A stretch of 64,000 bases of DNA, taken from positions 434,001-498,000 of the forward strand of contig CDROCS010002342.1 in the NCBI GenBank assembly GCA_977020255.1, written 5' to 3'. The position numbers and the translations under genes were made by a program. Under the pieces are notes generated by a model that had not been told where the DNA came from, made no database searches, and was given only the letters and a program-made list of their open reading frames with translations. Positions 1 through 55,700 of this stretch are shown one piece after another; position 1 is the first letter of the stretch; each line of letters opens with the position of its first letter. The DNA comes from Obrimoposthia wandeli (lineage: Eukaryota).

Positions 1-946
1 TGTTGAAGGGACCGCTGACCTTTCCGAGGAAGAAGCGGCTGTTGTAGAAGTTAGTGCTGCTGAAATAAATATATTAAAAAAATAAATATATTTTTTAAAA
101 TTATTACCTCTAAGACGTGCTAACATCGATGTAGGCACTCGCGATGGTGGAGGCATATCTGTTGTAGCAGATGACGATTGTAGAACTGTATTTCCTGAAT
201 AAATAATATAAATAAAATATATATAATAAAAATAAAATATATAATTACAATTTACAAAAATAAAAAAAAACCTAATGAAGGCAATCCAAGTTGAGATGGA
301 ACGAAGTCCTCTTCATTGATGGAATCCATCCAGCTGTCGTCCGTTGACTCGATGAAATCGGATTCCTCGATGGTCTCCAACCATGAGTTATCGCTCCACT
401 GAGGCTGCTCCATCTCGAAATCTGACTGGGTGATATTTCGCATCCAGTCATTGTTTGAGAATTGGGTTGCTGGTGCCAACTCCTCAAAATCTTCCTCGGA
501 GATGTCGTTCATCCACTCATTGTTTGACATTTGAGTGGATGGGGCAGCAGCAGAATCAGGAGCCGGGAGAGAAGGACCAATGGCAGGACCATAAACTGGT
601 AGACTGACTGCCACTGTAAATGGAGGTGGAGCTCGAGCGGCCTGCGAATCGCGCACCAATTGGACGATATCCCTCTTCTTGTTGTTGGCCGTGAAACACG
701 ATAGGTGAGCTCGATGTTCACAGAAGAATTCTCGAAACTCCTTCTCCTCAATTGTTCTGCAGAAGGGGCAGACGAAGAACAGAACACCTTGAGACTTGGT
801 CCGGTAGTATGCAGACATTGTCTCCATGCAGGACTCTCCTCCATGCGGAGCCGAAGCACCGCAATACGCAGGGAATAGGTTACACGTAATCTGAAATAAT
901 AAATATTAATAAGGAAATAATAAAAATAAATTCTTACCATAGGCAT
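1..946 (-). CDS. Spliced gene 1: N-terminal Cys/His RING-like Zn-binding region plus four acidic W/F repeats; 3' end outside the window
   Basis: Exons 946-938, 890-272, 194-108 and 59-<1 with GT-AG introns of 47, 77 and 48 nt; phases join in frame. TATATAA at 994-988. Protein MPMITCNLFPAYCGASAPHGGESC...CPFC...CEHRAHLSC...(NNEWMNDISEEDF-type repeat x4). Confidence 0.8.
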
Positions 947-1024
947 TATTTCAAATTGTCGGGGATTTAAATGAAGAAAGTGTTTGCTTATATACTAAAA
1001 TTCATGCACACATGCTCTTTTCCT

Positions 1025-1285
1025 ATTGGATTAAAAAATTGAATTTATTCCTCCACTGAGAAGGATTGTTTATCTGTTATTGGATGAAAAAATAATTTTA
1101 TTCCTCCAATAAAAGAGAAGGATTGTTAATCTATTATAGGTTGAAAAAATATTGTTATTCCTCCAATTAAAAAAAAGGATTATTCATATATTATAGGTTG
1201 AAAAAAAATTTATTCCTCCAATCAAAAGGCTTATTTGTAAATAAATGTAAAATTTTAATAATAAATTCCTCCAATTAGAAGAATT
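1025..1285. repeat. About five imperfect 55-60-bp tandem units (ATTCCTCCA...AAGGATT) upstream of gene 1
   Basis: ATTCCTCCA recurs near 1027, 1080, 1137, 1193 (approx.) and 1265; a partial copy occurs at about 19620. Confidence 0.75.
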
Positions 1286-1287
1286 GT

Positions 1288-1701
1288 TTATCTACATGTC
1301 AAGTAATAATAAGAAAGACTTAAACATTTTTTATATGCGCAATGGTCACCATGATTACGATATGGACAGCAAATATTTTGTGGAATATTTAATAGATGAT
1401 CACGTGAAATATTTAAAGTATTCAACCTCAATTTAGGAAAATATAAAAATAATAATATCTCTTCTCTTCTTTTTTCCTCCACCTTCCTTTTTTCCATTTC
1501 GATTTTCTTGTTCCACTCCACAACCCGACGTCGTTCTGCTAGCCGCCTGTCCTGAATCTTCACCCGACGATTCCACTCGGTCGCGACAGCAGTATATAAA
1601 TTCTGGTTGAGGATCCTCTTTCGTAAATCTCCTTTCTTCTCATTTATTCTTATATTTGCCTCGATCTTCGTCACCAAACTTTGCATTTTAATAAATTCCA
1701 T
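1288..1701 (-). CDS. Gene 2: basic coiled-coil protein with a C-terminal Cys/His cluster, function unknown
   Basis: Open ORF; likely start MEFIK at 1701 with a TATA-like run at 1737-1748; C-terminus CCPYRNHGDHCAYKKC; 3' part duplicated at about 19700-19840. Confidence 0.65.
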   Translation of the reverse strand: MEFIKMQSLVTKIEANIRINEKKGDLRKRILNQNLYTAVATEWNRRVKIQDRRLAERRRVVEWNKKIEMEKRKVEEKRREEILLFLYFPKLRLNTLNISRDHLLNIPQNICCPYRNHGDHCAYKKCLSLSYYYLTCR

Positions 1702-1904
1702 TTTTTTAATTATGAAGATGTTAATAAATTTGAACCTATATATATAAATTAAAGATATTTTTAATCCAATCACAAGCAATTAAAATATATTTATCAAATG
1801 GAAGTTTAATAAATATATAACTACTCATTGCATTTATATTTAATCCTAAATTTTTTAAATTATTCCTTAACAATCCAATCACATTCGAATAAGTTAACTT
1901 TATT

Positions 1905-2080
1905 TTAATAAACTTACGGAGGATATTTTAATATTACTAAATTCTAAAATTTATTTTTTTACCTTGTTATTTTAATAAACTTAAGATGGATATTTTAATA
2001 TTAAATTCTAAAATTTATTTTTAACCTTGTTATTTTAATAAACTTAAGTAGTATATTTTAATATTACTAAATTCTAAAAT
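1905..2080. repeat. AT-rich tandem repeat of about 62 bp, roughly three copies
   Basis: The unit AATAAACTTA...ATATTTTAATATTA...AATTCTAAAAT repeats three times. Confidence 0.7.
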
Positions 2081-2109
2081 AAATAATAATAAAAAGACAA
2101 CACAAGAAA

Positions 2110-4214
2110 CTAATGTTTATGAATTATATTTTTGAAAATCCTTACGAAGTCTTCATTGGGATCGTCGGGGTCGTATTCCCTCCGACTAAGTATTATAGGA
2201 GAAAGCGGTACTGGTTCCTTCTTCTTTGGCCGGCCCGGTTTCTTTTTCGGCTTCACCGGTTGCTGTACAGCAATTGTCCTTCCCTCAGGTTTTGGCAATA
2301 GTTGCCGCAACTTTTTGGGAGGAGGTGCAGCCGATGTTGATGGCCCGGACATAGAAGCAGTAGCCTTCCTCTTCCGCGGAGCTTTCTTCTGTTTCTCCTC
2401 CTTCTCACGCTGAAGCTGGCGTGAGACGGCATCCTGTTGCCCACGCGAATCTGGAAGCATTGCGGGTGTATCCAGTTCCGCTAGGAATTCGTCCAAACCA
2501 GCGTCATCCCAGGCCCTCTTCAAGTTTTGGCTGGTTGTTGGACGAGGAGAAGCAGTATCCTGCAGGCGTTGTTGACTCGAGTGCGGACTAATCTCGATCG
2601 GTGAGACTGGGATCCTCTCATATAAGATAGGCCCGTCGTCCATTGGAGGAGGGAGAATCTCCTGCTGGCCAATCACCGCCTCAGAATAATGGCCAATTGA
2701 GGTTCGAATTTTTCTCGTGCGCCTCGTCTTCTTCACCTCTGCCCGCTTTGTCCTTTTCTTAGGGAAAGGAGTAACTTCTCCACAAGTCTCCTCAATTATC
2801 CAGACAGGTTCCTGCAAATGAAAACAAAAATAAAATTTCAAATAAAATTTTATTTAAATAAAAAAATATTTAAAAAAAAAAATTACCTCAATAATCTTAG
2901 ACGGAAGGTTTTCCTGCCGCTCAATCGTTACTTCACTCGAATTGAGCAGACAGGATTTTGCCTTTCTAAGACACCGTGTCTTCCGTACAGTAAGCTGCCT
3001 CGTTCGCTTATGCGGGAAAGGAGAAATTTTGGCCCACGTCTCCTCAGTTAATATTATTGGTTCCTGCAACAAAAAACATTAATAAAATTTAAACATATAA
3101 ATAATTTACCTCGATGACTGGCAGATTAGCCTGTTTCCCCAACTTGGCCTTCTTCCGATGAACCGTATTGGTTTTGATTCGATGACGTTGAGCTTTCTTA
3201 ACTGCCGCTTGCTTCCTATCAACAGGTAGTCTCCGAGATGCCTCCTCCCAAATTTCCTCCACCAATTCAGCTTCATAAGTGAATAATTAAATAAATTTAC
3301 TAATTTATAATAATATACCTCAATTTTAGCCGAAGTCGGTAGGTATCTCTGATCACTCCTGGGATCATCCTGGCTACATTGACTCGCCAAGTATTGCGGT
3401 TCAATTAGCCTCTCAATCGTGGTCACTGACGGTGCCATATCCAATTGCAGTTTCTGAAAATAAAATTAAAAAACATTTTAAATAAATGATTTCTAACCTC
3501 ATTCGTCGCCTTTATTCTCCTAACAGGACGTATCGGAGATTGTGGCCTTCTGAATGGATCAGGCACTGTATTGTTGGGTATCGGAGTCGGAGTTGTAGAG
3601 GGAGTGAGACCATCCCATTCGTCAGTGAACAGATCCCACTCATCTTCATCCATTTCTGCAACCATGGACTCGTTGGCTCCTGGGGCTCCGATACTTGGCT
3701 GTATCCACTCCTCCTCCCCATCCGACGGAACGTCATCAGTAAACAGCTCCTCGTCTGAGTTTGGTGCCAGTATTATCTCCGGTTGAGACAGCGGGATCAA
3801 TTTCCAGGGGCATTTGATTGCCGCCTCGAAATTGTCAAATAGATTGGATCTCATTGCTGCTACTGCTGAAGTTGCCGGACGATTGGCTTCTGTGTTCAGC
3901 CTGGGAGTACAGTCTTCCCAATTCTCTATCGAATCCTGACTAGTCAGATCGATATATTGGGATCTCTGTACCCCACTTCGCACGCTCATTGGTTCTTCTC
4001 TTGGAGTTGAGCTGGCCAATGGCGGTTCTTCTAGCAACAGTTGGGCTCTTGCTGCTGCTTCTCCTTCGTCTCCTTCACTCACCACCGACGAGTCTTGACT
4101 AAGTAAGTCAATGTACTGCGCCGGTGGCGGCGTTCGCTGATGTACTGGAGAGAGATCTCCATACAGCTGAACCTCCGTCTCTTCATCCAAATCGACGTTA
4201 TTGAAATTTGACAT
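2110..4214 (-). CDS. Spliced gene 3 (possibly two genes or isoforms): acidic SIM-containing N-terminal part plus basic nuclear C-terminal part
   Basis: Exons 4214-3498, 3453-3319, (3270 or 3256)-3110, 3063-2887 and 2811-2110 with 44-75-nt GT-AG introns; TATATAA at 4278-4272. Motifs: YIDLLSQDS and YIDLTSQDS, EMDEDEWDLFTDEW, PRKRKA, PPKKLR, KKKPGRPKKK. The third-exon acceptor is ambiguous. Confidence 0.7.
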
Positions 4215-4598
4215 TCTTGCTTCTTGATTAATGATATTTGATTTATGAAAAAATAATGAAAAGAGGTTTCCTTATATACAAAAATAATAGACTAACCCTC
4301 TTTTGTCGTCCAATGAGAGCGGGTTAATCAAATAATTTATTTGAAAATCAGTAGGCTTTTCTCAATTTTTTAACTATGTTTGAATGCTGGAATGTCATTG
4401 GATAAAACATATTTTATTCGAAAATGTAACTATTTTCTTAAGATTTTCTTAAGATTTTCTTGTATAAGTTTAACGTCCAATGAAAACGTATTATTCAAAG
4501 AATTTATGTTATTTTCTTAAATTTTGTTAATATTTGGATTTAAAATAGTAATATTTTTTTTGACTGTACATGTTTGGATTGGACTGTACACTCATTTT

Positions 4599-4744
4599 AG
4601 GTCAAGTTAAGGTCATTACCTTATGAGGTCATCATCGTGAGGTCAAGGTCATTTAAGGTCATCATGAGGTCAAGGGTACAAAGTATATTAGGTCATCATG
4701 AGGTCAAGATCACTTAAGGTCATGATGACTAATTTGATGACTCA
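4599..4744 (+). promoter_or_regulatory. Array of 10 co-oriented AGGTCA hexamers followed by a TGACTCA (AP-1-like) site
   Basis: AGGTCA counted at 4599, 4610, 4626, 4640, 4646, 4656, 4667, 4690, 4701 and 4717; TGACTCA at 4738. Lies between the TIR and the gene 3 promoter. Confidence 0.7.
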
Positions 4745-4849
4745 TCAAATAAAAATGCAAATTATTTCGAATTTATGTAGTTGATTATTTAAATTTTTTT
4801 GTGACCCTATATATGTATCTTTCTTATAAGCTGTATCTTTCGCGAGCCT

Positions 4850-5126
4850 GTATTTATTACTCGTTGATCCACTGCGGGCCCGTAGGGCACGCTTTGGCCA
4901 TTTTTTTGGCCTCTCAGGACCTTAATCAAAATTTTGGGAGCATTATGAGATTTTAAAATTTACAGGGTGTTAAATGGAGTTTTTTTTTTTTTTTTGAGTT
5001 TTTGAGATGGGGAGGGTAGAAAATTTTTCTACACACCTACACGAAATTTCACTCCACACACATGCACGGTTTTAAAGGACAGTAGGGGGGAGGGGGGTGT
5101 GGATTAGACCGGATTAGACCTCTAAT
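4850..5126. repeat. Maverick terminal inverted repeat, right-end orientation
   Basis: Shares GGCCTCTCAGG, GGGAGCA.TATGAGATTTT, AAATTTCACTCCACACACATGCAC.GTTTT.AAGGACAGT and GTGGATTAGACCGGA with 58500-58705. Confidence 0.75.
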
Positions 5127-5345
5127 GATAGAGTATCGGCTTTCAAAGTGCTAGTTGATTCATAATAATTCATTTCACCATCTCTTGTAAAATAACAGTT
5201 GTATTACTATAAGTAAATTATGTCAATGCAACTTCCCAAACGCCTTGAGGTTCTATTGCATATTTCCATTCAACAATAAAGTTCGATGCAGTATTAACAT
5301 ATTGAGTGTTTGGACAACTTTTACATGGTAATACAATATATAAAT

Positions 5346-6250
5346 TTATTTCTCTATCTGGTTCGCTTTTATCCATGTTTGTGTTTTATATCTGTGCCAT
5401 TTAACGATATTTTGATTATTTTTACCTCGACCTTTATATTTAATAATTTCTTGGATCCTATATACTTTTGGTTTATCAATAACTTGTAATTCCTGCTCAT
5501 AAAAATTTCCCTATATTGGACCTTTATCTTCATCTATGATATTATACATTACGGAGTTATTACGCAAATTGATTTTTGATATTTCAAATACTTCACAGAT
5601 GCAATTATTATCGAAACTTTTAATAAAATGTGTTGTACTTAGACATGATATGCAAACGAAATATCCGACTTTGTATTTGGGTTTCTTTATTATAGTTCGA
5701 TTATTGCGGTCAAACCAATCATTGAGTGAAATATCAATATATTTCTTACCGCCCAAACATCAATGTAGTAAGGGATTATATGAAATTATCAGTTTTGGTA
5801 GTACCTTTACCCATTTCTTTGATCCAATTGTGATTAAATTTTTCTTTACTTTATACCTCACTGTCCTATTAATTCGTTCAACCAAGGCTGCTTTAAAGTG
5901 TGAAAACAAAAGATTAGTGATTTAGTTCTAATTTATCAAAAGTGGTTTTAACATGTTTATTATAAAACTCTTTTCCAACATCTGTTTGTACTTTATCGGG
6001 TACAACATCAATCATATTTTTGATGGCAGCATCTAAATCTTTTTTTCCGATTTTGATTTTACGGCTTCGACACACGCAAATCTAGTAAATGCATCAATAT
6101 ATGATGAAATATATTTGTAACTGCATTAATACGCTCAAAAAGTATCATCTCGAACAAACCCATTTGTCACAAATTATTAGAGTTACTAGTCTTGTACGAT
6201 CCAGTCGGAAATCTTTTTCACATTAGTTTGTTGAGACTGTAGGCTAGGTG
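5346..6250 (-). pseudogene. Maverick retroviral-like integrase with C-terminal chromodomain, decayed
   Basis: IDAFTRFA, DKVQTDVGKEFYN, KKPKYKVG...GNFYEQEL, YRIQEIIKYKGRGKN...VKW; multiple stops and frameshifts. Confidence 0.85.
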
Positions 6251-6737
6251 ATTGCTTAACCATGCTTAAGTTTTCTTTTGACTCGACTTTGTGTTTGATG
6301 ATAGACCTCAAACGCCCATGTATCCTACTCAGTCTTTGGAATTGTACCATCTCGCTTCCATTGCAATCATTTATTTTAAAGTCAAAATTAAGCAAGTTGA
6401 TTCCCATACACTTTTTAAGCAACAGCTATAACAAGTAATGGACCGAATAGCGTTTAAACTTTCAAAGCCTCATCAACTATATTCCCTTAAATCTACTAAA
6501 ATAGCGTCATGACAAACTCCATCAAGCAGAAAGGAACAAGAGCATGGCATATGGATACTATAAAATTTGAAAGGCTTTCTTTATTGATTAATTTTTAATA
6601 AAATCCATATGGCACCTTTATTCTTACAATACTTTTATTTAATTTTATTAGGTTGGACCTTATAACTTACCATTGTTGAAAAATATGCCTATTCTGTGAT
6701 ATTATTTTATAGCTAATGTTTTGTATAAATGTATATA

Positions 6738-16559: not shown

Positions 16560-16946
16560 GATTTACTTCTTTTTTGGAAATGCATCAACATCTATTTCTC
16601 TTCCATAGTCATCTAGAAATGCTGCATCGGCTCCTCGGATATAAAATTCGTTCTTGTTGAAAGTAAAATTTGGAACTACATTTTCAACTTTCTAATTTAG
16701 ATATTGAAAATCTGGTTTTTGAATATTTTATAGATTATAGCTGAACTTTCTTCTTTCAATTGTCACAGGATTTACTAAAGCAATCAGTTGAGCCTTCTTC
16801 AAGAATCTGACTTTGTATTTGAAATATTGTTTCACTTCTTCATACATATCCTTATCCGATTCTTCAAATATTTCTAAATCTTCATCGCCGCTTAATAATC
16901 GTTGGCTATCGTCTATCATTGATAATTTTCTTTGATATGAATGCAT
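16560..16946 (-). pseudogene. Maverick ORF X, unknown function; second copy at about 46570-46960 (+)
   Basis: MHSYQRKLS...NIQKPDFQYLN*KVENVVPNFTFNKNEFYIRGADAAFLDDY conserved in both copies. Confidence 0.55.
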
Positions 16947-17194
16947 TTATTGTGATTTGTCCTCCAACGGTGCATTCTTTTATACTAATTTGTAACAAAG
17001 ACATGAATCTCATTGGTTAATATAACTAAAGCATTGAATTTGATTTGACTAAATCCATATTAAAAATAAAAATTTATTGGAAGAAATATATCATCCAATT
17101 ATAATAGGTTTTCAAGATAATTACAAGAAATGTGCAATAAAAAGCAGGTTCAGACATATATAAAGAAGAATTTACAGAATACAATTTTAGTCTG

Positions 17195-17596
17195 ATGAAA
17201 CTCGTAAATATAAATGATAAAGGTAGAATAGAAAATGATGTTTCGTACTTACAATTAAATGAATGGAAGCCGGGACAATAAGTGGAAAAGTTTGACAATT
17301 TCACAGTTGTTATTTTTCCTAAAGGTTAGTTTTTTATTATTTTTTTATTTTCATATTGAATTCTTTTAGTAAATTGTCGTGTTATGGGATGCAAAAAACC
17401 TTTGCTTGAGATCAATTTACCATTTGGAATTCGAATCACTGCAATACAATCAATCACGATTTCGGCTAATCTTGGGAAACAAATAAATCTTTTTAAAATT
17501 GCAGAGTAAATGAAAGAAGAATGCATGTTTGAACCAGAAATTTTCCTGCTCTCAGATATTTAAAGTTTACTAGCTATCTTTTCTATAAACAAACCT
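17195..17596 (+). pseudogene. TATA-binding-protein-like gene (one 45-nt intron) within the Maverick, disrupted
   Basis: MKLVNINDKG...VVIFPK|(intron 17325-17369)|VNCRVMGCK...IQSITISANLGKQINLFKIAE*MKEECMFEPEIF matches the TBP repeat motifs NIVxSANL, EPExFPxL and IFxSGK. Confidence 0.7.
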
Positions 17597-17926
17597 GTTT
17601 AAATCTATTGTTTCAAATGAATAATACTATAAATAAAAACAATGAATTGGATCGTCTTGTCGACGATGTTTTTACAGGAAAAAATAAGTGTAAACAATTT
17701 TTATCATAATTAAAAAAATAATGATATAACAAGAGATAACATTGAAATATTGGTTAGATCACACGTTATTCGAGAATTTAGATATCGAATACAAATAAAT
17801 AAAAATATAGTCAAATATTCATTAATTAATTTTTGTATTTCATCTACAGAAGCTATGGTATTATACTTTTCTATAAGGAAACTTCTATAATAATATAAAC
17901 AATATTAAAATGAAAGAGTATATGTA

Positions 17927-18242
17927 ATGGAGCTAAATAATAATGCTGTATTTCAAATAGTTGGTCCCAGTGGAAGTGGAAAGACACATTTCGTATGTAA
18001 ATTGTTGCAAAATGAATATTTTTTTCAATTCTAGTTTCAATTTTTTTAAAATCTTAGAGATCAAACAGTTGTAGATTTCGTAGCCCTACAGGCATTTCAC
18101 TAAAAAATGAACTTTCTAGTTGATTCATTCTATGATTCTGCTAAACAAGGGTTTATATTTATTGACTTTACACAAGCTTGCCCAAATGATTTACGTGTTT
18201 TAACAAACATATTTAATTCTAAGGAAGTAACTGTTTATAAAT
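17927..18242 (+). pseudogene. Maverick FtsK/A32-like packaging ATPase, internally deleted
   Basis: Walker A GPSGSGKT; C-terminal FIFIDFTQACPNDLRVLTNIF; central part missing. Confidence 0.8.
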
Positions 18243-18455
18243 AAATAGTAAACAATTATAAAAAATCAATTTACAATGCCTTTTAAGAAGTTGATAGTGA
18301 AAAGTAAACGTAAAGTAAAAGCCAAGCATAAGAAATCAAAAAAAAAATATTAAGAAAAAAGAAGTGAATAAATTAATTAAATCTGTAGTTCGAAATAAAA
18401 GAAAACTTAAATGGCTTCGAATATAAACAATTTTCAAATTGAAATTTTTTTTAAA

Positions 18456-18790
18456 TGAAGAAAATACAAAGAAGCATACCCTATTTTAAAGCTTTGATCA
18501 AAGTGGCTTCTTATAAGAGAATATCCATCTTTTGTTGTAGATGATTTATTGGAAGTTTTGTATAAAATAGTTTTGGGTCGACTAAAAATTGTAAAACGGA
18601 AAAATGTATTAAAGAAATATAGAAAAACTCTTTTAGAAATTGCTAATGTAAAAAGTAAAAAAAGGAAACGAAATATTATTCTTAAACAGAATGTTGGTTT
18701 CATAGAAGCTGTTATTCCAGTTGTTGCTTCAATTATCAGTAGTAACACGTACATAAACAATTATTTCAAAAATCAGCTACAGATATGGGT
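18456..18790 (+). pseudogene. Maverick PW-like small basic protein, frameshifted; tiny Lys-rich ORF just upstream at about 18277
   Basis: LKKYRKTLLEIA...KRKRNIILKQNVGFIEAVIPVVASII resembles the QxGGF-type motif; homolog GFIGAIIPVVASII at about 45530-45580 (-). Confidence 0.6.
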
Positions 18791-18842
18791 ACTAACCCTT
18801 CTTTACCTAAACTTAAATTTTCTTTCTATTCAAATTGTTGTA

Positions 18843-19090
18843 ATGGAGAAGATATGGTTCAATCCAAAAGATTCAATTGGCTACACAAGAGTTTCAAAAT
18901 AGGTAAAAAGAACAAAACATAATTACAAGAAAACGCAGAAATGGCTGAGCGATCAGTTAGTCTACAGTCTGAACAAGCCGATTAGAAAAAGGTTTCCAAC
19001 TAGAGCTTACAAAACAAGCGGTCCTAGTAATTTATGGCAAATGGATTTGATGGAGATGATTCCATATTCTTCTATGAATAAGGAATACCG
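18843..19090 (+). pseudogene. Maverick integrase N-terminal fragment
   Basis: YSLNKPIRKRFPTRAYKTSGPSNLWQMDLMEM; breaks off into the gene 1 copy. Confidence 0.85.
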
Positions 19091-19099
19091 AAAAATCAT

Positions 19100-19580
19100 A
19101 AGAAAAAATACCTGATGAAGCCGATTCAACTGTAGCTGGTTGGAAGTCTTCTTCATTGACAGTATCCATCCAGCTGTCGTCTGTTAACTCGACGAAATTG
19201 GATTCTTCAATGTCGTCCAACCAGCCGTTGTCGCTCCACTGAGACGGCTCCATCTCGAAATCTGACTGTGTGATATTTTCCATCCAGTGATTGTTCGAGA
19301 AATTGGTTGCTGTCGCCAAGTTATCAAAGTCTTCTTGGGCGATGACGTTTATTCACTCATTGTTAGTCAGTTGAGTGGATGAGACAGCTTCGGAATCGAG
19401 AGACGGGAAGGAAGGACCAACCTCATGACTGTAAACATTTTGAATGACTTCCGTTGCAACTGGAACAGGAACTGGAGCTGGAACGACAATCAAAGCACGC
19501 ACCAATTGAACGATATTCTTCTTGTTGTTGTCCGTGAAACAGGAGAAGTGAGCTCGATGTTCATTTTATGCACACATGTT
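19100..19580 (-). pseudogene. Diverged, truncated copy of gene 1
   Basis: EHRAHFSCF and repeats NNHWMENITQSDF, DNGWLDDIEESNF, DDSWMDTVNEEDF align to 252-827. Confidence 0.85.
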
Positions 19581-21725
19581 CATTTCTTATTGAATGAAAA
19601 TATTAATTTTTATTGAATTTATTCCTCCAATTAAAAGGATTGTTAATTATTGGTTATTGGTTGAAAATGTTATATTTTATATATTGTATATCTCCAATTA
19701 TAAGTATTGTTTATCTACATGGCAAGTAATAGTAAGATAGACTTATACACTTTTTATATGTGCAATGTTCACCATGATAGATAGATGATCACGTGAAATA
19801 TTTAAGGTATTCAATCTCAATTTTGGAAAATATTTTTTAAAGTCTTATACTTTTTACCATACATTTCATCTAAAACATAAAAAAAACAGTTTTCAATATC
19901 AAAATTAGATTCAATAGTATTACACAAAGGCTTATTTCCTTCTCTTCATTTTAATAAATGAAAATTATTAGTCAGATATAAGTTTGTAATTTCTTCTTAT
20001 AATCTAAAGTTCTAAACGGAATATCTACATGAAATATGAAATGCAAAGGATGGAAAACGTCGCATATATCGATAATACATAATTGTTACTCCCAAGCTTT
20101 TCAAAGCCAAACAGGATCAAATTCCAAATTTTACCACACCCAATTGCAATGATCACAAATCAAACTCCGACTTTGAAGCAGCTTTTGAAATTGAACTGTG
20201 AACTGAGCTCTTTACAGATTCTGCAAGAAAAATTGAATTAATCTGTTATTTGGAATTAAAGTTTGCAGAAGATTGAATATAAATTTAATACTAAATTATT
20301 GGCTTTGACCTGTGATTAAATCGCTAAAAAAACTATTCATATATTTTACTTTCTAAAATTTATAAACAATTGTGAAATAAATGGAATAATTTTATAGTAA
20401 ATATTTTATAATTACTTATAAAGTCAATTTTATAACTGACTATCTATTTGATTATTTTGTCCCCAGATGTACTTTGCAAAAGTTAATAAATATTTTGAAG
20501 ATGTTTCAAATACATTCTAAATAAAATCTTTTCTCCTAACCTAACATATCAACATCTGCAAAATTTGAAATATTTTAAAAATGGAATAAAAGTAACTTAA
20601 TTAATTGTTTTTAAGATATAGACAGTAATTAATATTAAGTAAAGGGTTCATCGGCTCTTGAAATACAAACATTCCTTACCTCATATTTATTGAATTGTAA
20701 TCTAGTATAAATATTGTTGTTTAATCTTTTCAAAACCGTTATGTAATCAGAAACTAGAAATATCCTACTTGCAATAATTTTTTAATGAATAAGTATTTAA
20801 CATATATCATATAATTTGTGTTGTGGAATCTAAATTTTGAATTATATCTACGGTAGAAAACATAACTGGTGACCACACCTAAATAATTGTAGTGACGAGA
20901 AATAAAGGAAAGAAGAATCTTCTCGAAACAATGCAAAAATAGCAAAAAATTACGTTTAGTACAGCACAAGAAAATATTATGGAACAAGTTCAACGAAAGG
21001 TGAAAAACGGATAAAATATATAGGAGAGTGGGTCGACGAAAATGAGACTAATATCATGGATGCATTTGATTTGCTGTTGTCTGATGAGGCTGAATTATTA
21101 TATAAAGATGCCAGTAAAAAGTTAAATTCAGAAATTGAAGTCAAAAAATGGTTTGAAGAAAAGTTTTTAAAAAATAAATTCATATTTGACAACACTTGCG
21201 AACTCGCAAAGGTGAATCAAGTAGAAGGCGAACGTTTATCCGTTTATCGAATGTTTAGAGTTAGAAAACTGGTTGAGGCAATGATGGAAAATAATGTTAG
21301 CAAAGATGACCTGACTGACACTAAAGTTTATTAAAGATAGAGTAGGAAGTGAAAAACTGAAGGAGTAGTTCTTATAAAATTTGCAGATGCTAAATGAAAA
21401 AATAGAGGCATTGGCAAAGTTTTATTGCAAAATGGAATAATTGAATCCAAGATTGCACAAGTTCAGAATACATATGCAAACACATTAAAAAGAGAATACA
21501 ACTGTCCAGACTACCGTCCTAATTTTTCAAACAATACGAAGAAATACCCGTTATCGGTAACAGTAGATCACGAAGAAAGAAGTTATGTTCATGGAAAAAA
21601 ATATACATAAATATGGACGCAAAAAAACAAAATAAAGGACACCAAAGCGGAGGGTTTTATTAAAACAAGTAGCTTAAAAATATAACTTAGCCAAGGGACT
21701 GCCTGACACAAAAGTGAAAAATGTC

Positions 21726-25349: not shown

Positions 25350-26490
25350 ACGTAATTAGACGTTGTGAAAGTCCTTGGAACTCGCCATTGGTCATTGTGA
25401 AATAACAAGACAATACAATTCTAATGTGTGTTGGCAATAGATAAATTGCATGCTGTAACCAAGAAGTTTACATTTCCAATACCGGGTGCACAACTCTTGT
25501 TCGATTGTCTGGGTGATGCAAAAATATTTACGACACTAGATATTGGACAAACTAATTACCAGGTAGATCTAGAGAAAGAGTCTTAGATCAAAACTGCATT
25601 CAGTACAAAACTGGGACAATTTTGTTTCAATTGGTTGTCATTTGAGTTGTCTACGGCACCTGCAACATTCCAGAGTCTGGTGCATAAAATATTGAATGGT
25701 TTGCTGTTTTAAAAAAATGTATATCTGGATGATATTCTTGTTTATAGTAACAACCAAGAAGAACATTTTAGATTATTAAGGAAAGTATTTAAAAGAATTG
25801 CAGCGGGAGGCCACAAAATAAACCCTAATAAATGTTGCATTGGTCAGAAACAGCTAAAATTTCTAGGTCAAACCATAACAGAAAGCGGAACATATACAAA
25901 TCAGTCGAAATTCAACGAAATAAGAAATTTCAAAGAACCAGATTGTAAAAGAAAATTAATGTCATTCTTAGGAATGACAAACTATTATCGTAGATTTATT
26001 AAATATTATGCCAATACTGCAGCTTCTCTATATGCAGCGGGTTCCGAAGATAAGAAGTCAATACAATGGTCACCGGATTGTAAAACAAGTTTTGCACACC
26101 CGAAAGAAAAAATTAACAACAGCTCCCATATCAGATTTTTTCCAGGCAAAATAGAAAATTTATAATTGATACAGACGAAAGCTTTGGTGTGATTTGGGCA
26201 ATATTGAGCCACCTGGATGAAATGAGAAACGAAAAAGTGATTGTATACGCTTCAAGACAGTTAACTTCTCATTAGAAAGGTTATTGTGTCACCAGAAAAG
26301 AATATTAGAGGTAGATAAATTTATTATGTATTTCAAACATATTATATATTTTTGGCAAGAACAGATCATAAAGCATTGGTGTTTTTAAGAACGACAAAAA
26401 ACCAATCAGTCTCCAATTTCAAACATGGCTGTCAAATTTATTAAAATTTCATTTTAAATTAGAGCATCGTAAAGGTATTGACCATGGTAA
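25350..26490 (+). pseudogene. Ty3/gypsy reverse transcriptase-RNase H remnant
   Basis: SPWNSPLVIV, IKTAFST, APATFQ, VYLDDILVYS, SFLGMTNYYRRFIKYYA, VIVYASR, EHRKG..HGNAD. Confidence 0.9.
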
Positions 26491-42560: not shown

Positions 42561-43094
42561 TTACAGGAAATAAAATATCAAATATTGTGTACCACTGAGT
42601 TATGCTGATAGCATACAAATATATGTGGCATCATTTTACAAGAATTAAAGGAAATAGAAAATTATATTATTTAATAAAACGTATATTTATTAGACATTTT
42701 AAATTAAATGATAGATGAACATAATTCAATAATTTTGAATCACAAAATGCCGTAAATTTATTAATGCAGTCCAAAAGCCATATATGGTTGGTAACAATGA
42801 CATATATGCAACCGTTTCCGTCAAAATCTGGGATTTATGCTTGATAAACAAAAACGAAAACGAATTCTCAATTTAACAATATTCGTATTATAGCCAGTTA
42901 AGCAGTGGATGGACTCTAGTTAAAATTCATGATGTTAACTTTATTTTAACAAAGTTCACTATTATGATTTATTTATTTTTATTTATTTATTATTCCTTCA
43001 TTATTAACGTACATAACAGTGATAACCTTTGCCTCCCATAATAAGGCTCTTATATTTTGGGAAAGTAATTGTCAAAATCTTCTAGAGTATATGC

Positions 43095-43560
43095 TGTTAT
43101 TTGAAGTTAGACATTTATCTTTTAGCTGGTGTGTTTGAGTCCTTTCGTGTAAAATCTTTAGTAAAAGATGGGCTAGATCCCATGCATTTCTTTAGTTTAC
43201 CTGGTCTTTCATGGGCAAAGGCAATAAAAACTCTTAATATTAATATCGAGTTACTGCAAGATCCCGCGATGTATCAAATGTATGATTATGGTATACGCAG
43301 TGGAAGGAATTTTGTCAACAAACATCATGTTTTCAAAGATCAATCCACAGAGATTCTGTACATCGACATTAATAATTTGTATGGGTGGGCACTTACTCAA
43401 CCTCTACCTCATGTCAAGTTTAAGTGGGTTTATGATGAGGAAGAGTTGAATAAGTAGATGACAGATTTGGCTACTGTTGATACAGTTTCATCAAACGTCG
43501 GCTATTTGGTTGAGGTTGATTTAAAAATCCTTCCCAATGTTGAGGATAAATTGGATGATC
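43095..43560 (+). pseudogene. polB: Maverick protein-primed family B DNA polymerase fragment
   Basis: LLAGVFESFR, GLDPMHFFSLPGLSW, YGIRSG, YIDINNLYGWALTQPLP, GYLVEVDL. Confidence 0.88.
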
Positions 43561-43911
43561 TTCAAGGGGCACTTGTTCTATACAAATACCGATAACTTTC
43601 CCAATTTAGTTTGATTTTGAGGTATCCATATTATTCTCTAAAGTGGTACTCGCAGTCATCCTTAAAGCGTTGGTTATATTAAACTAGTACAAATATATAA
43701 CTGATTAATAGCATTTTAAAGATTGGCCTAATTTTTATCTTTATGTTTTTACCTGTTTTCTACTGCACTTTACTGTAAACGTCAACTTACCATTATTTAA
43801 TATTACACCTTTATCCAAAAATTTACTGAATTTTCTCATTATAAATTTACATAAATTCGCTTCACTCTCTATTTTATAATCTTTTGAAAACATTTTTAGT
43901 TCCAGTACATC

Positions 43912-44394
43912 TTAAGATCTAGCTTCAGCTAACAACAGTTTTGTTACTCTATCAGGAACATTTCTAACCGATTTAGTTGAGACAATATCTTGTTTCTTAT
44001 TACCTACTGTATGTTCGATATCAAAACCGAATTGAAGAGCTTCTTTATCAGATTCAAATGTAATTTGAATGACTTGAATAAATTTTAATCGATTTTTAAA
44101 TCTGACCTTTTTATTTTCATATAATATTGTCACTTCTTTATCTATACAATTGTAATATAATTTTCCTTTACTATCAAACCTGATCACAACTTTATTTAAT
44201 TTTTCATAATTAAATTCTTTGTAAACGAAATATATGAGTTTTTTCTTATTGTAATTGGAGAATAATAAAAAGAAAATTCTGCTAAAGCCGCTTCCCATCC
44301 TCCTTGGAGATTTATAGAATTTTCCCAATCGACAAAAAGCTACTAGCATCATTATCTGGCTGAGTCTTCGGTCATCCGTTACTAGGTAAAACAA
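43912..44394 (-). CDS. 160-aa ORF directly downstream of the Maverick integrase, unknown function
   Basis: Uninterrupted ORF, co-oriented with and abutting the integrase remnant. Confidence 0.45.
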   Translation of the reverse strand: MFYLVTDDRRLSQIMMLVAFCRLGKFYKSPRRMGSGFSRIFFLLFSNYNKKKLIYFVYKEFNYEKLNKVVIRFDSKGKLYYNCIDKEVTILYENKKVRFKNRLKFIQVIQITFESDKEALQFGFDIEHTVGNKKQDIVSTKSVRNVPDRVTKLLLAEARS

Positions 44395-44399
44395 TATAC

Positions 44400-45416
44400 A
44401 AAGATTTAATATTATATTATATGCTGATTTCCAAGTAGGATCTGAATAACCATACCATTTAACAAAGTATTGTTTATGTTTACTGGTACTCTTAGATTTT
44501 AATAATTTTTGAAAACCGAAAACGTTAGAATTATTTGATATTACTTGTAGTTCTTGCTCGTAAAATTTGCTCTGAATGATATTATTGTCATCATTTTTAA
44601 TAGTTTACATTATTGGATTACGCTTTAAATCAATTTTACTTATACAAAATATTTCATCACTCCAATTCCGATCAACATTTTTAATAAATAGAGTAGAGAT
44701 AATTTTAGAAATTTGACCATTTTGTGTTTCTTATATTTAGCTTTTTTATTATTTTTTATTATTCATGTCTATCCAAATATCCATATAGTTTTTATCAGTA
44801 ACATCAACAGGTCTCATTCTCTTGAGATTTCTATGTTCAGAGTGATTCTATGCATGTATTATTTTAGGCAAAACTTGAATCCTCTTTTTATTTCCTTCTT
44901 TTGTGAAATACTTTTTTATTCGATCTCTTAAAGTACGATTAAATCTTTCTACTACTGCTGCTTTGTACTGTGAAAACACCGAGTAGTGATTTATATTACT
45001 TTGTTTAAATAATGATTGAATTTGCTGATTATAAAATTCTTTTCCTAAATCAGTTTGCACATTTTGTGGAATGTCCTCTTTTAATATTTCTTTAATGGCT
45101 TCAAGCATAGCATTTGAAGACTTTGCTTTAACTGGAACTGAACGAGTAAAACTGCTAAAACATCAATACATTTTTAAATATATCTATATTCTTTATTAAT
45201 GAAAGAATATGGAATCATCTCCAAGAAATCCATTAACCATAAATTATTAGGACCGCTGGTTTTGTATGCTCTAGTTGGAAACCTTCTTCTAATAAGCTTG
45301 TTCAGACTAAAGGTTAACTGATTGCTCAGCCATTTCTGAGTTTTTCTGTAATTCTGTTTTGTTCTTTTTGCCAATTTTGAAACTTGGATCTTTGAATTAA
45401 ACCATATATTCTCCAT
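44400..45416 (-). pseudogene. Maverick integrase (near full length) with chromodomain remnant
   Basis: RRRFPTRAYKTSGPNNLW, NVQTDLGKEFYN, KAAVVERFNRTLR, NWSDEIF, KFYEQEL; stops and frameshifts present. Confidence 0.9.
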
Positions 45417-45819
45417 TACAACAATAGAATATATAGAAAATTTAAATTTACGTGAAGAAGGGTTAGCATCAATATCTTTAAGTGATTTTTGAAATAATTG
45501 TTTATGTACGTGTTACAGCTATAATACTACTAATAATTGAAGCAACAACTGGAATAATAGCCCCTATGAAACCCCCATTCTGTTAAAAACCATCACTATA
45601 ATGTTATTTATTTGCATTTGATTTCTAAATTCTCAAATAACATGTGATCTAACCAATATTTCAATATTATAGTATCTCATAGTATATATATATTTTAAAT
45701 TCTTATAAAATTTGTTAACTCTTAATTTGTCCAGAAAAACATTCATCAACAAGACGATCCACTTCATTGTCTGTATTTATAGTATTATTCATTGAAACAA
45801 CAGGTATAAACGGGTTTGT

Positions 45820-46311
45820 TTATAGAAAAATTAACAAAATGTAATAAAGTATATTTTCTAAAATCGATTCAACAGTGTATTGATAATCCAAATTTCTCAA
45901 TCCCAATATCATAACTTTACGACTTGAAAATATTTACACATAGCGGTGTAAACTTCAAATATCTGAGAACAGTAAATATTTCCAGTTCAAACATGCATTC
46001 TTATTTCATTTTCTCTGTAATTTTATAAAGATTTATTGCTTTCCCGAGATTAGCTGAAATTGTGCTTGATTGTATGGCGCTGATTTTAATTCCAAATTGT
46101 AAATTGAAATCATCCAAAAGTGTTTTGGATCCCTTAAACGACAAATTCCTAAAATAATTCAATATGAAAATAAAAACTACCCTGAGAAAAAAATAATAAA
46201 TGTGAAATCATCAAACCTTTTCACATATTTTCTCGGCTTCCAATCATTGAATGATAAGTGCAAAATATCATCTTCTATTATTCCTTTATAATTTATATTT
46301 ACGATTTTCAT
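45820..46311 (-). pseudogene. Second copy of the Maverick TBP-like gene
   Basis: MKIVNINYKG...IIFFSG|intron|ICRL...IQSSTISANLGKAINLYKI...ECMFELEIFTVLRYLKFTPLCVNIF-SSRKVMILGLRN, read across small frameshifts. Confidence 0.7.
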
Positions 46312-47161
46312 TAGACTAAACATGTTTTCAGTAAATTATTCTTTATATATGTCTGAACTTGCCTTTTTATTGTACATTTATTGTAAATATCTTGCAAACC
46401 TATTATAATTGGATGATTGAAATCTAATATATTTCTTACAATCAATTTAAATTATAAATATGGATTTAGTCCTATGAAATTCAATGCTTTAGTTATATTA
46501 ACCAATGAGATTCATGTCTTTGTTAAAAATGAGTATAAAAGAATGCGCCATTGGAATACAAATCATAATAAATGCATTCATATCAAAGACAATTATCAGT
46601 GATGGAAGATAGCCTACAGATATTGAGCGAAGATGAAGATTTAGAAATGTTTTAAGATTCGAATAAGGATATGTATGAAGAAGTGAAACATTATTTTAAA
46701 TACAAAGTCAGGTTCTTGAAGAAGGTTCAATTGATTACTTTAGTAAATCCTGTGATTATTGAAAGAAGAAAGTTCAGCTATTATCTATCAAATATTCAAA
46801 AACCAGATTTTCAATATCTAAATTAGAAAGTTGAAAATGTAGTTCCAAATTTTACTTTCAACAAGAACGAATTTTATATCCGAGGAGCCGATGCAGCATT
46901 TCTAGATGACTATCGAAGAGAAATAGATGTTGATGCGTTTCCGAAAAATAAGCAATGGACTGCAACAATTTGACTTTATGGTTACAAGAAAGAGGAAATT
47001 GGAACAAAGTTACCTATGTTTTAACTGTTTTATTCTTTATTTTACCACCTTTCTTTCATTTTGCATGTAATAAATTGTAATCAGTTTTTTTTAATTTTAT
47101 AATATATGTATCTTATTTTTTTTTATTAACATTATTTTGTAATCAGTTTTTTTATTTTAGG

Positions 47162-47437
47162 ATGGATCTTCTTCTGAGATATGTTGGAAATTTTTATTAT
47201 CCAGAAAGAATTACAAAAGGAAAACTATGTAATATATTAAAGAGACATCAAATTATACAAATTATGAATCCTGTGAAAATATCAAAAGTGGAAAATGAAT
47301 ATCTCATCGAAATTTTAACAACATCTGATATTGATCAATTGAAAAATATTTTGGGATTTTACATACCTGATTATGTATATGAAGTAAATTCTTTCCAGTT
47401 TGAAACTGATCCCAGTCTAGTTTTAAAGATGATCTAG
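47162..47437 (+). CDS. 91-aa ORF of unknown function, probably Maverick-derived
   Basis: Open ORF adjacent to the Maverick segment; no recognisable motif. Confidence 0.3.
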   Translation: MDLLLRYVGNFYYPERITKGKLCNILKRHQIIQIMNPVKISKVENEYLIEILTTSDIDQLKNILGFYIPDYVYEVNSFQFETDPSLVLKMI

Positions 47438-49020
47438 GATATTTGATTGCTCCAATTCTAGATGAAGAACTATGGAATATCTCAATACGTCTCAATGGAT
47501 ATTTTGCTGATGACGGGAAAATGCAGCCTCTTTGGACTTTGAGTGAAGCCAATATGGTGTTTTACGTTTGATTTAATAAATGTTTTGAAAATAATTTTGA
47601 CTTGTATTTTCTCCAATAAATCTGACTGAAACGTATTATCTCCCTTTATAATACATTTTATTAATTAAAGCTTGTTAACGAAAAGAGATGTAAGATTCAT
47701 CAGTAAATTTCATCAATAAACAAGCTTAAACTACTTATTAATACATTTTTATTTGGGCCACGCAAAATTTTCATTTTATTATACTGGTCCTCATCGCTTT
47801 TGACATGCGAAGCCCTGGATTAGATGATAATTAAATCCTATATTAAATATTTTTAATTTATCTGACATTATCTTAAGACTTATTAATTACATAATTGTAA
47901 CAATTTAATCTTCTCTAAACACTTATCACTATTTACATTATAATATTACATTAATGCATACTGTAAGATTTGTAAAGAAGAATTAAATAAATAACATGCT
48001 TATTTATAGTGAATAAATAACCTTGAAAAAATTTATAAACATTTTCTTAAAAAAATTAAAAGTTTTTAAAACTAAAAAACATAATAATTTTAGAACCTTG
48101 AAAAGGATCATGAAAATGAATTTCTAAGCTAAAAAATGTAAAATGTTGGGAATAATTTAAGAGGGTCATATTCAAGTATTTTAATAATTTCTTATTTGGA
48201 ATTAACTTGTAATTAAAAAATTAAGTAATGCACTTTGGCATTTTCTTTAGGCTTTTTGATTGTAAGTCCATGACGATCCAAAGGATCGTTTAGTCCTGCC
48301 ATGGGCTCTTTACGGCTGATGCTTATCCCTGACTTCCCGGTGGGCAAAACACTCACAAAGTCAGAGATAAAAAATGGGGTTTTCCCCTCTGTTACATGCA
48401 CAAAGAACATACATCACACACATACACGTTTTTCTGGCATACATCCCTACTCACTCACATACTTACTCACATACTCACTCACTCTCGCTACTCACTCATC
48501 ACTGATATGTGTTACTTGCATTAATATATGTGTATTGATTTTTTTTCGTGGAGATATTTCCTGCACATCATCACACACAGTCGCGGGGGGCTTCAGTTTA
48601 TCTGCACTGACGCTGTCCGCCGGTCTGTGTGTCATTATTTCCCCGCTGTCCGTTTGAGGAACGGATCAGCGATTTGTGGGCAGTGTTATACACTGTATTT
48701 AAACTGCAGTTTTTGCCGCCAACGCCAATATAAAAGAAACTACGAAAAATGTATTGAATTATATTTTACTTCTACGATTTTAATTTTTTTCGTTAACATT
48801 TAAGCGAGGCAAAATCAGTGATATGAAGTCACCAATCATCCAGCCCCAACGACCATACCAACGACCATACCAACGATTCCAGCGAATCTCCATAGGGTAT
48901 TTAAAGACAATCATTTGCTAATTTATCGAACATAAAATTTCAGACAAGAAACAGCAGAGGACAGTACAGAAGAGATTTTACTAGAAGAATCAAACTTACC
49001 GATATTCAATAGAGGATAGT

Positions 49021-52700: not shown

Positions 52701-55700
52701 CAACATTTTGGTCGGACAGCAAGAACGTATTATGGTGGATACACCAGCCAGGAATAGACTACAACCCGTTTGTAGCCAACCGAGTGTGGATGATCCAAGA
52801 AGATACTGATATAAATCTCTGAAGGTATGTGCCCACGAAGCTAAATCCAGCAGATATACTATCGCGGGGAGTCGATGTAAAGCTATTGATTGACGAGACA
52901 GATTTGGTGGGAAGGACCGGAGTACCTAAAGGAACAGAAAGAAAATTGGCCAGTTAATTTAGACTTAGAATAAATACAGTCAGATAAAGAGAAAAAGAGA
53001 CGGTACAAGGAAGTAACAATGTTCATACAGGAAGTAAACTGTTTCAAGATAGAGACTAATTCCGACTTGACGAGGTTGAAGACAGTCTTAGCTTGGATAC
53101 TACGATTTGCACGAAATATAAAGTAATCTCGAAATAGCAGACTTGTAGATGAGCTGAAGATTGATGAAGTGGAAGAAGAGATGCAGTGGTTGATAAAGCA
53201 TGAACAAAATCAGTACTTCTGCAAGTAATACCAAAGGTTGAAAAAGAGGAAAGATATGGAGAGAACAAGCTCATTACTAAGGTTGAAACCGTGGGTGGAT
53301 GAAAAAGGGATAATCAGAGCCAATACCCTAATTAGATGACAATACCCTAATTACGCCTAATGTATTTTAACAGTAAATACATTAGGCGTACACTGCAATG
53401 CCAAATCTGACAATTTTTTCATAGTGACAAAATTTGACGAAGTCAACGACATAACCAAACGATCTTTCTTAAGTCTTTTATCAAAAGTGTTTGATCCATT
53501 AGGTTTTGTTAGCCTGATAGTCATCAGAGCCAAAATTATTATGCAGTAAGTCTGGCTTACAGGGTCGGATTGGGATCAAAAAGTAAATCAAGAATTAACT
53601 AAGATAAAAGTACAATGGATAGCGGATTGTAAGCAATTGAAATAGATCAAGATTCCGAGGTGGATGATAACGAGTGAGAAACAGCAAGAAATTCACGTTG
53701 ATGGCAGCTAAAAGTAGATTTGCCCCAGTGAGAATAAAATGTGTACCCATATTAGAGCTGATAGCTGCAGGGATTGGAGTGAAGTTAGCACAAACGATAT
53801 GGGATGCTTTAAATTTAATGGAGGTAAAAACAACATTTTGGTCGGACAGCAAGAACGTATTATGGTGGATACACCAGCCAGGAATAGACTACAACCCGTT
53901 TGTAGCCAACCGAGTGTGGATGATCCAAGAAGATACTGATATAAATCTCTGGAGGTATGTGCCCACGAAGCTAAATCCAGCAGATATACTATCGCGGGGA
54001 GTCGATGTAAAGCTATTGATTGACGAGACAGATTTGGTGGGAAGGACCGGAGTACCTAAAGGAACAGAAAGAAAATTGGCCAGTTAATTTAGACTTAGAA
54101 TAAATACAGTCAGATAAAGAGAAAAAGAGACGGTACAAGGAAGTAACAATGTTCATACAGGAAGTAAACTGTTTCAAGATAGAGACTAATTCCGACTTGA
54201 CGAGGTTGAAGACAGTCTTAGCTTGGATACTACGATTTGCACGAAATATAAAGTAATCTCGAAATAGCAGACTTGTAGATGAGCTGAAGATTGATGAAGT
54301 GGAAGAAGAGATGCAGTGGTTGATAAAGCATGAACAAAATCAGTACTTCTGCAAGTAATACCAAAGGTTGATAAAGAGGAAAGATATTGAGAGAACAAGC
54401 TCATTACTAAGGTTGAAACCGTGGGTGGATGAAAAAGGGATAATCAGAGCCAATACCCGAATTATTAATGCAGAGTTTTTAGATAATGACACAAAATATC
54501 CCATAGTGTTATCGGAAAAGAGTTGGCTGACTAGATTAATCATAAAGGATACACACGAGAGGTTACGACATTACGCCGGGGTACAGCATATACTAAATGA
54601 GAGCCAAAATAAATATTGGATTCCTAAAGTACGAAGAGTAATCAAATAAATAGAGCAATAATGCTTCGACTGCAATAAAAGTAAAGCCGTAGGGATGGTC
54701 GAAGAGATATCACCCTTGCCGGGATTCAGATTTGAACAACTGTTAAGGGTCTTTTCAAACGTTGGAGTGGACTTTGCAGGATCATTCATTACAAAACAAG
54801 GACGGGAAGAGTGAGGACTAAGAGATACCTTTGCCTTTTTACATGCCTGCAAACGCGGGCCATTCATTTAGAGATGGCTTATGGTTTGGATGTCGATAGG
54901 TTTATTAGGGCATTAAAAAGATTTATAGAAAGAAGAGGAAGACCACGAATGAAAATATCGGATAATGGCACAAATTTTGTGGGGGCGTTGAATGAAGTGA
55001 GCGAATTGGTACGGGATGGTTATCGGATTCAAAAGGAGTTAGTAAAGGAGGAGATACGTTGGGTCTTCAACCCACCACATGTACCACATTTTAGAGGGGT
55101 CTTTGAGATCATGATAAAATGTGCCAAAAATGCTATATACCGGATTCTAAGAGGAGCCGAAGTGACTGACGAATAATTACAATTAGAATTCATCGAAGCT
55201 GAAAGCCTTGTAAATTCTAGATCCATTGGAGTTAAGAGCATGGATGCAAAGGAAAATGAGGCGCTTTCACCTAACCATTTTTCAATAAATCAGGCGTATG
55301 CTGAGACAAAGTTTGGGAGCGATGAAATGAAGTCGAAGCACAGATGGAAATTTGTCCAAATGTTAACCAGTATGCTATGGAAGCGATGGATGGAGGAGAT
55401 TGTACCCATGTGGGCACCGAGACAAAAGTGGCATGAGGCACGCACACCGTTACTGATCGACGACATCGTGTGGATAATAGAGAAGCAAATGAAGAGAGGT
55501 TAATGGAAATTAGGTAGAGAGGAAAAATTAGAGACCGGAGAGGATGGGAAGGTGAGAGTAGCAAAGATTATAGTGGGAAATAAGTTAATAGTTAGTGCGC
55601 TTCATAGCGTGTGTAGATTATATTGGGTCCTTAGAGCTGTTTTATAATTTACTCGTTGTTATAATTATGTCAATGCTGAATAATGAAAGTAAGTATGTGA

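Follow-up and report, generated by a model that had tools for sequence, protein, structure and literature searches.

It is an open question whether Mavericks are genuine viruses, and how they would time the production of their capsids. A locus in Obrimoposthia wandeli raises a related one: what would a Maverick do with a TATA-binding protein (TBP) of its own? The locus lies in a 64,000-nt stretch of contig CDROCS010002342.1 (positions 434,001 to 498,000), referred to below as the window. A preliminary description of it proposed a spliced TBP-like gene belonging to one Maverick family, whose minimal product directs or hijacks Pol II transcription.

Two broken TBP-like genes and their Maverick surroundings

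Copy 1 of the gene begins with an ATG at 17195 on the forward strand, 3' of an ordinary TATA-type box (17157..17165) that is predicted from its sequence to be an early-type promoter for host TBP. Exon 1 (17195..17324, 130 nt) encodes a shortened N-terminal lobe, and removal of a predicted 45-nt phase-1 GT-AG intron (17325..17369), delimited by comparison of copies, brings the exon 2 remnant (17370..17591; end of the N lobe and C lobe) into frame, as originally described. Two stops interrupt this copy, at 17279-81 and at 17507-09; its frame also breaks near 17540, and the gene end is lost to a deletion at about 17570. Copy 2, on the minus strand with its start at 46311, consists of exon 1 (46182..46311), a 33-nt intron remnant with a non-GT donor (46149..46181), and exon 2 (45817..46148), which has frame breaks near 46138 and 45934 and a YATAAACR box at 45824-45817. 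Both copies are therefore disrupted, as the preliminary description had stated, and their elements are 86% alike over 1,021 nt surrounding the gene; they are broken TBP-like genes of one Maverick family, here family A. The half-repeat motifs first listed for copy 1 turned out to mix the two copies, since NIFSS..KV.ILG is not in copy 1 and occurs only frame-shifted in copy 2. The Pfam TBP profile (PF00352, cut-off 22.9 bits) scored 21.0 bits (E 3e-4) on the exon 2 piece of the window and 46.3 bits (E 3.7e-12), above the cut-off, on exon 2 of another natural family A copy. It did not match exon 1 by itself, and relatives of the gene scored 37-67 bits.

The left limit of copy 1 is the truncated start of a divergent neighbour gene (16563..16946, minus strand), which we take to be SSB-like and label so for working purposes; an atlas search with this neighbour gave no usable match. 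Downstream on the forward strand lie a small ORF of about 80-90 codons, broken in the window and without Pfam match (17617..17890), the remnant of an A32-like packaging ATPase with an internal deletion at 18040 (17927..18241; PF04665 on relatives), the remnant of a basic ORF without Pfam match, given the working label PW-like (18410..18740), and the 5' part of a retroviral-type integrase, recognised by sequence comparison and cut by a rearrangement (18843..19091). The second decayed family A element (43038..47610, minus strand) contains the TBP-like gene, an integrase with chromodomain (44413-45407, minus strand; PF00665 and PF00385) and the start of a putative minor capsid gene, together with a pPolB remnant on the opposite strand (43098-43580; PF03175, E 2e-4). 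It had been placed in the same gene context as copy 1. A second TBP-like copy is indeed present there, but the ATPase region is deleted and most of the next gene is missing.

The full gene order of family A is SSB-like (minus), TBP-like, small ORF, ATPase, PW-like, integrase, putative minor capsid, major capsid, protease and pPolB (minus), where the minor capsid is presumed from position and recall and has no Pfam match. The following hallmarks of Mavericks/Polintons were found: pPolB, integrase, A32/FtsK ATPase, protease, major capsid, and inverted repeats with a 6-bp duplication. Protein-primed PolB of relatives matched PF03175 at E 1e-21 to 1e-24, and PolB matches also occur in family A copies. 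The integrases of the elements matched PF00665 and PF00385, and the ATPase matched PF04665 on relatives at E about 1e-6, with tblastn links to family A. Families A and B both have, after the capsid gene, an ORF with a His/Gln/Cys motif that was counted as an adenain-like protease (PF00770 at E 0.004, below the cut-off); a genome-wide search with PF00770 gave no match anywhere, controls included. A model of the major capsid protein of a relative, L070 (pLDDT 74), matched iridovirus, PBCV-1 and mavirus capsids at E 7e-14, and the family A gene matches the L070 capsid at up to 490 bits; the major capsid of the lineage is predicted to be a double jelly roll. A capsid profile gave 0 matches to PDB sequences. 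Family A ends are inverted repeats starting AGTAG. Both were recovered in 2 of 4 extended contexts, one of these two with a 6-bp target duplication.

The TBP-like gene lies consistently inside Mavericks. Flanks of 1.5 kb matched a Maverick core gene at 46 of 50 loci in the same genome, the other four matching genes known from these elements, and core genes were found on 21 of 24 metagenome contigs of at least 4 kb that bear the gene (38 of 80 contigs of all lengths). It is thus a Maverick gene, as proposed, but one that marks a whole lineage rather than a single family. That lineage is heavily expanded in the O. wandeli genome, where a first look gave 19,768 TBP, 24,442 pPolB and 29 TFIIB candidates (not copy numbers). 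TFIIB, with its 29 candidates, is not expanded alongside TBP, and those inspected resemble host exons. Neither a viral TFIIB nor a viral RNA polymerase was found in these elements by Pfam matches on relatives and the genome TFIIB search.

Several other features were recorded. Families C and D (L055, L057, L060) bear a BIR (inhibitor-of-apoptosis) gene beside the TBP-like gene, and family D also a dual-specificity phosphatase gene. Within the window, positions 1-5120 and 19077-20087 hold the right-hand end of a further element of family A that carries several intron-like early ORFs, and a rearranged piece of this region is joined to the integrase of copy 1. About 290 nt at 58429-58717 have both family A terminal repeats and are perhaps a miniature non-autonomous derivative. 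An integrase remnant at 5203-6372, 65% identical to family A, represents a further Maverick family, and reverse transcriptase and integrase fragments at 25713-26165 and 54736-55176 belong to unrelated retroelements.

Predicted splicing, relatives and modelled fold of the TBP-like protein

Start, donor and acceptor could all be mapped in 37 natural family copies, drawn from 61 stretches of which most of the remainder are host TBP or other families. A GT-AG intron is present in 34 of the 37 and both exons are open in 15. Exon 1 is 130 nt long in 36 copies, and the intron varies from 33 to 45 nt, its length not being divisible by three in 18. Families C and D and the metagenome locus L107 have an intron of different sequence at the same codon (its donor altered in the family D copy viewed). 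An artefact was rejected on the GT-AG borders, the varying length beside a fixed exon 1, the position common to other families and the lack of the intron in sister families with one open frame. Since the unspliced intron opens with an in-frame stop, the product needs splicing, and we infer that the family A gene is spliced. Families B and F of the same genome have a single open frame across the junction with no intron, and among full-length metagenome matches 69 of 71 have no interruption, so that on these sequences splicing appears as a minority trait of the lineage. In four runs of contigs from one sample of uncertain kind, none of the joints listed (15 of about 920) corresponds to the intron. 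In metagenome loci L062-L089 the SSB-like neighbour often seems to have a short 5' intron, which suggests that introns recur in early-type genes of the lineage.

A natural intronless frame of family B, P0001 (144 aa), served as structure query. A word-indexed search with it found 43 relatives at E <=0.001, and 136 cluster representatives, ordinary TBPs among them, had E <=1e-10. In a quick tree (79 rows, with a duplicated-domain protein and a short host exon left out), a branch with SH-aLRT 100 separates 38 short TBP-like proteins from the TBPs of the host, of archaea and of NCLDVs (these last represented by one row). Over 30 pairs of relatives, which are non-independent, the median dN/dS was 0.19, indicating purifying selection on the TBP-like relatives at the sequence level. 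Variants among 39 genomic copies of family A are near neutral (N/S 0.70-0.83), as decaying insertions would be, and lend present function no support. Given the separate clade and the purifying selection, a retrocopy or pseudogene of host TBP was rejected, as was a chance ORF. In a viral contig collection, the P0001 search found 0 loci, the family alignment one locus, an NCLDV with a full TBP, and the capsid and ATPase alignments 0 loci.

The genome also contains intronless, two-lobed, fast-evolving TBP paralogues that group loosely with host TBP (L034 and L035; G000 C60 and C1092), of which that on C60 has no Maverick gene directly beside it. Two host-type TBP genes adjoin in divergent orientation at L031 (G000 C238).

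The AF2 model of P0001 (pLDDT 94.4, pTM 0.83) is a two-lobed saddle. In a Foldseek search of the PDB, ranks 1-44 were all TBP, with a best E of 1.3e-9 and the next family at E 0.017, and a VIA comparison with human TBP 164-336 gave Z 13.8 and rmsd 2.5 with 144/144 residues aligned, the next fold reaching Z 6.8. A phmmer search of PDB sequences had a best E of 1.6e-14, natural copies exceed the curated TBP profile cut-off, and the atlas returned TBP clusters at 0.95-0.97, with recognition below threshold. The fold claimed in the preliminary description is thereby borne out, in a predicted model, for the family. TBP-like saddles also occur in replication initiators (Rep proteins, Z 5.7-6.8), and the fold could in principle serve a non-transcriptional role such as bending element termini in replication or packaging. 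The residues and box positions described below make this very improbable.

The model has a complete C lobe. Of the N lobe, strands S1, S3, S4 and S5 remain, but helices H1 and H2 are missing in model and alignment alike, leaving a gap of about 14-20 residues; distant relatives L113 and L121 keep more of this helix region. The protein accordingly has neither the four helices of canonical TBP nor the basic regulator patch of N-lobe H2. Intercalating phenylalanines had been part of the case for a TBP, and three of the four canonical ones are kept among the 38 aligned members (F39 in 38, F98 in 38, F114 in 37). The first N-lobe site has Phe in none of the rows and Lys in 28. The acidic C-lobe loop for TFIIB is present throughout, with E96 in 38/38 and E or D at position 94 in 38/38, and this invariance argues against the non-transcriptional role. 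In cellular TBP, the C-lobe glutamates bind TFIIB, and the basic patch of N-lobe H2 binds TFIIA, TAF1, Brf, Mot1 and NC2 (Ravarani 2020, PMC7221094, consulted in part).

The YATAAACR box and a proposed late switch

One natural element has nine YATAAACR boxes along its virion-gene cassette, all on the coding strand, and copy 1 of the window retains four, on the forward strand. They precede the small ORF at 17617 (17584..17591, overlapping the 3' end of the TBP-like gene), the ATPase (17894..17901, 33 nt before its ATG), the PW-like gene (18422..18429) and a small ORF with ATG at 18785 that overlaps the integrase start (18752..18759). The last ORF (18785-18922), found with its own box in many relatives too, begins Met-Gly and has a Cys-Cys pair; we presume that it may be a lipid-modified peptide.

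ATAAAC was counted in non-redundant 90-nt upstream regions (collapsed at 70% identity), with expectations taken from dinucleotide shuffles. It was found before the ATPase in 28/30 (2.0 expected), the major capsid in 10/15 (1.1), the putative minor capsid in 12/19 (1.9), the PW-like gene in 10/15 (1.6), the integrase in 11/23 (1.4) and a 159-aa ORF in 12/18 (1.5). Before the SSB-like gene it occurred in 6/30 (1.6 expected) and before pPolB in 0/6. Upstream of the TBP-like gene ATAAAC occurred in 6/64 (3.8 expected) and an ordinary TATA in 29/64 (7.0 expected). Metagenome loci taken separately gave 24/26 for the ATPase and 7/7 for the major capsid. Rows with an unassigned start or close to a contig end had been dropped (ATPase 4/54, major capsid 13/34, minor capsid 8/38, PW-like 9/30, integrase 4/42, TBP 15/108, PolB 25/33). 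The boxes lie 15-84 nt before the ATG, a range that partly reflects start calls. In two natural elements they map to gene starts and not to termini, which again speaks against a role in bending the ends.

Some boxes lie within the last coding stretch of the preceding gene (as YKQ, HKQ and INK codons), where protein constraint may help to preserve them. Because many boxes fall at the 3' end of an upstream gene, and ATAAACA fits the forkhead consensus RYAAAYA, the box might instead be a host forkhead-factor site or a polyadenylation-related signal unconnected with the TBP-like gene. We give this little credence, since the box has a single orientation (60 of 78 forward, 2 of 78 reverse), GTAAACR occurs in 1/78 and AATAAAC in 3/78, and T or C precedes in 58/78.

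The sequence TATAAACR is one letter off the ordinary TATA consensus, and the genome has host TBP together with the intronless two-lobed paralogues. Host TBP or a paralogue could therefore read the box as a weak variant of TATA, with the mini-TBP only assisting or acting on early TATA promoters. We regard this as unlikely: the C of the box is constant across elements whose TBP-like proteins share 30-60% identity, 11 of 60 boxes begin with C, and early-type genes of the same elements have an ordinary TATA. An apparently TBP-less Maverick lineage in the same genome is, moreover, mostly without the box (4/61 upstream regions; ATPase 0/9, capsid 0/5), although this control is one lineage of 10 related copies and so compares one clade with one outgroup. 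No match to a TBP of its own was found in its 10 contexts, those in one context being adjacent fragments of the TBP lineage, and no close TBP-less relative of the TBP-bearing lineage was found. This second lineage (L318, L369-L370; G000 C3352, C1961, C2121 and others) has a double jelly-roll capsid, a PLA2-like domain fused to the integrase, and a different ATPase and PolB, and in place of the box its genes have a T-rich and then an A-rich run directly before the ATG. TFIIB matches near its elements were rejected as viral TFIIB because they look like host exons.

From this pattern we consider it likely that the Maverick minimal TBP binds YATAAACR before the packaging and capsid genes and recruits host TFIIB and Pol II, providing a late switch. 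The earlier proposal that the protein directs or hijacks Pol II thus gains sequence support for directing; a hijack of host genes is unsupported, the evidence pointing to the element's own genes. Host TBP would transcribe the TBP-like gene early from its ordinary TATA box, and in family A the transcript would be spliced. The mini-TBP would then bind YATAAACR through its retained concave DNA-binding sheet, and its acidic C-lobe loop would draw in host TFIIB and Pol II for late expression of the virion genes. Loss of the N-lobe helices, where TFIIA, TAF1, Mot1/BTAF1 and NC2 dock, may let the protein act independently of TFIID and avoid being evicted. That the box departs from an ordinary TATA at its 3' end may be explained by the absent N-lobe Phe, together with other conserved changes of the DNA face. 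In the usual orientation of TBP on DNA, this changed end of the box would be the one that meets the altered N lobe. The parts of PMC10886972 and PMC10005294 consulted do not state which lobe faces which end. Against the late-switch reading stand the box upstream of some SSB-like genes (6/30) and the 35 of 64 TBP upstream regions that have no ordinary TATA.

The missing TFIIA and TAF1 surface, and the host-modulating BIR and phosphatase genes of some families, would also suit a decoy or repressor that occupies TATA boxes or sequesters TFIIB, damping host or early element transcription, with the box serving another factor. This seems to us distinctly unlikely, because the strict conservation of the DNA face and the TFIIB loop suits a working initiation factor, and the box and its TATA-like spacing would be left unexplained.

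Returning to the late switch, we see about an even chance that its broadest form holds, in which the smallest two-lobed TBP (145 residues) serves a widespread Maverick lineage for an early-to-late transcription cascade of its own. Rewired in DNA specificity, the factor would use a private box together with TFIIB and Pol II of the host, and would not respond to the regulators of host TBP. A dedicated factor and a box common to the structural genes would make a concrete switch of one small protein and an 8-bp site, and the late-gene strategy of herpesviruses would then be known from a second case, apparently of independent origin. A natural minimal TBP also offers a way to ask which surfaces initiation needs. 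If the cascade reading is true, the elements would be transcriptionally autonomous nuclear viruses that need no helper giant virus, and the protein and its box a natural orthogonal promoter system.

Comparison with known systems

Like cellular and archaeal TBP (PF00352), the Maverick protein has a two-lobed saddle with a complete C lobe, three intercalating Phe, the N-lobe Asn and the acidic TFIIB loop. Unlike them, it is about 30 residues shorter, lacks H1, the stirrup and H2 of the N lobe, and falls in a separate clade in the quick tree. It further differs from cellular TBP in having a KP-x-Q/M motif in place of the first N-lobe Phe and an invariant Asn where cellular TBP has Leu before the last Phe.

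The elements resemble the Mavericks/Polintons/adintoviruses covered by the parts consulted of Starrett et al. 2021 (PMC8502044) in pPolB, an rve integrase with chromodomain, an A32-like ATPase, an adenain-like protease, a double jelly-roll capsid, inverted repeats and a 6-bp duplication. They differ in that TBP is not among the genes of animal adintoviruses in the text and figure labels of that source. Its Fig. 5 legend does name 'TBP' for MELD viruses, which are related to adintoviruses and come from non-animal data sets; this may or may not be the same family. No description of the short TBP family or of the YATAAACR box was found in the literature searched, a scope outside which most subscription journals lie, and PMC12220804 gave only reference-list matches.

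Fold similarity to the herpesvirus protein BcRF1 is weak (E 1.2e-3). The TBP homologues of Nucleocytoviricota (giant viruses, ASFV B263R, poxvirus factors) likewise have a viral TBP fold, with best BFVD matches at E 2e-8 to 1e-3. They usually come with a viral RNA polymerase and also, according to the parts consulted of Ravarani 2020 (PMC7221094), with a viral TFIIB. The same source notes that the TFIIB site has diverged in most viral TBPs, which are accompanied by a TFIIB of viral origin. The Maverick family is the opposite, keeping the site, with no viral TFIIB found.

The closest functional parallel lies in the TBP mimics of beta- and gammaherpesviruses (KSHV ORF24, EBV BcRF1, CMV UL87), which, as described in the parts consulted of PMC12529657, work with host Pol II and recognise a variant TATT box at late genes. 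The two systems share a TBP-fold factor, the lack of a viral RNA polymerase, a variant late TATA and ordinary early promoters. ORF24 is a large protein that contacts Pol II directly; it depends on five further viral factors and is not compatible with TFIIB (PMC12529657, in the same parts). The Maverick protein is instead a bare 145-aa core that retains the TFIIB loop, with no Pol II-binding N-terminal domain or viral activator complex, its approximately 145 residues all aligning to the TBP core. Since Ravarani 2020 argues that most viral TBPs rely on a viral TFIIB, and ORF24 bypasses TFIIB by means of other viral factors, a so far unrecognised viral partner is possible. By analogy, the herpesvirus TBP is most likely what the Maverick protein works like, and the Maverick mini-TBP is a new variant among viral TBP-type factors.
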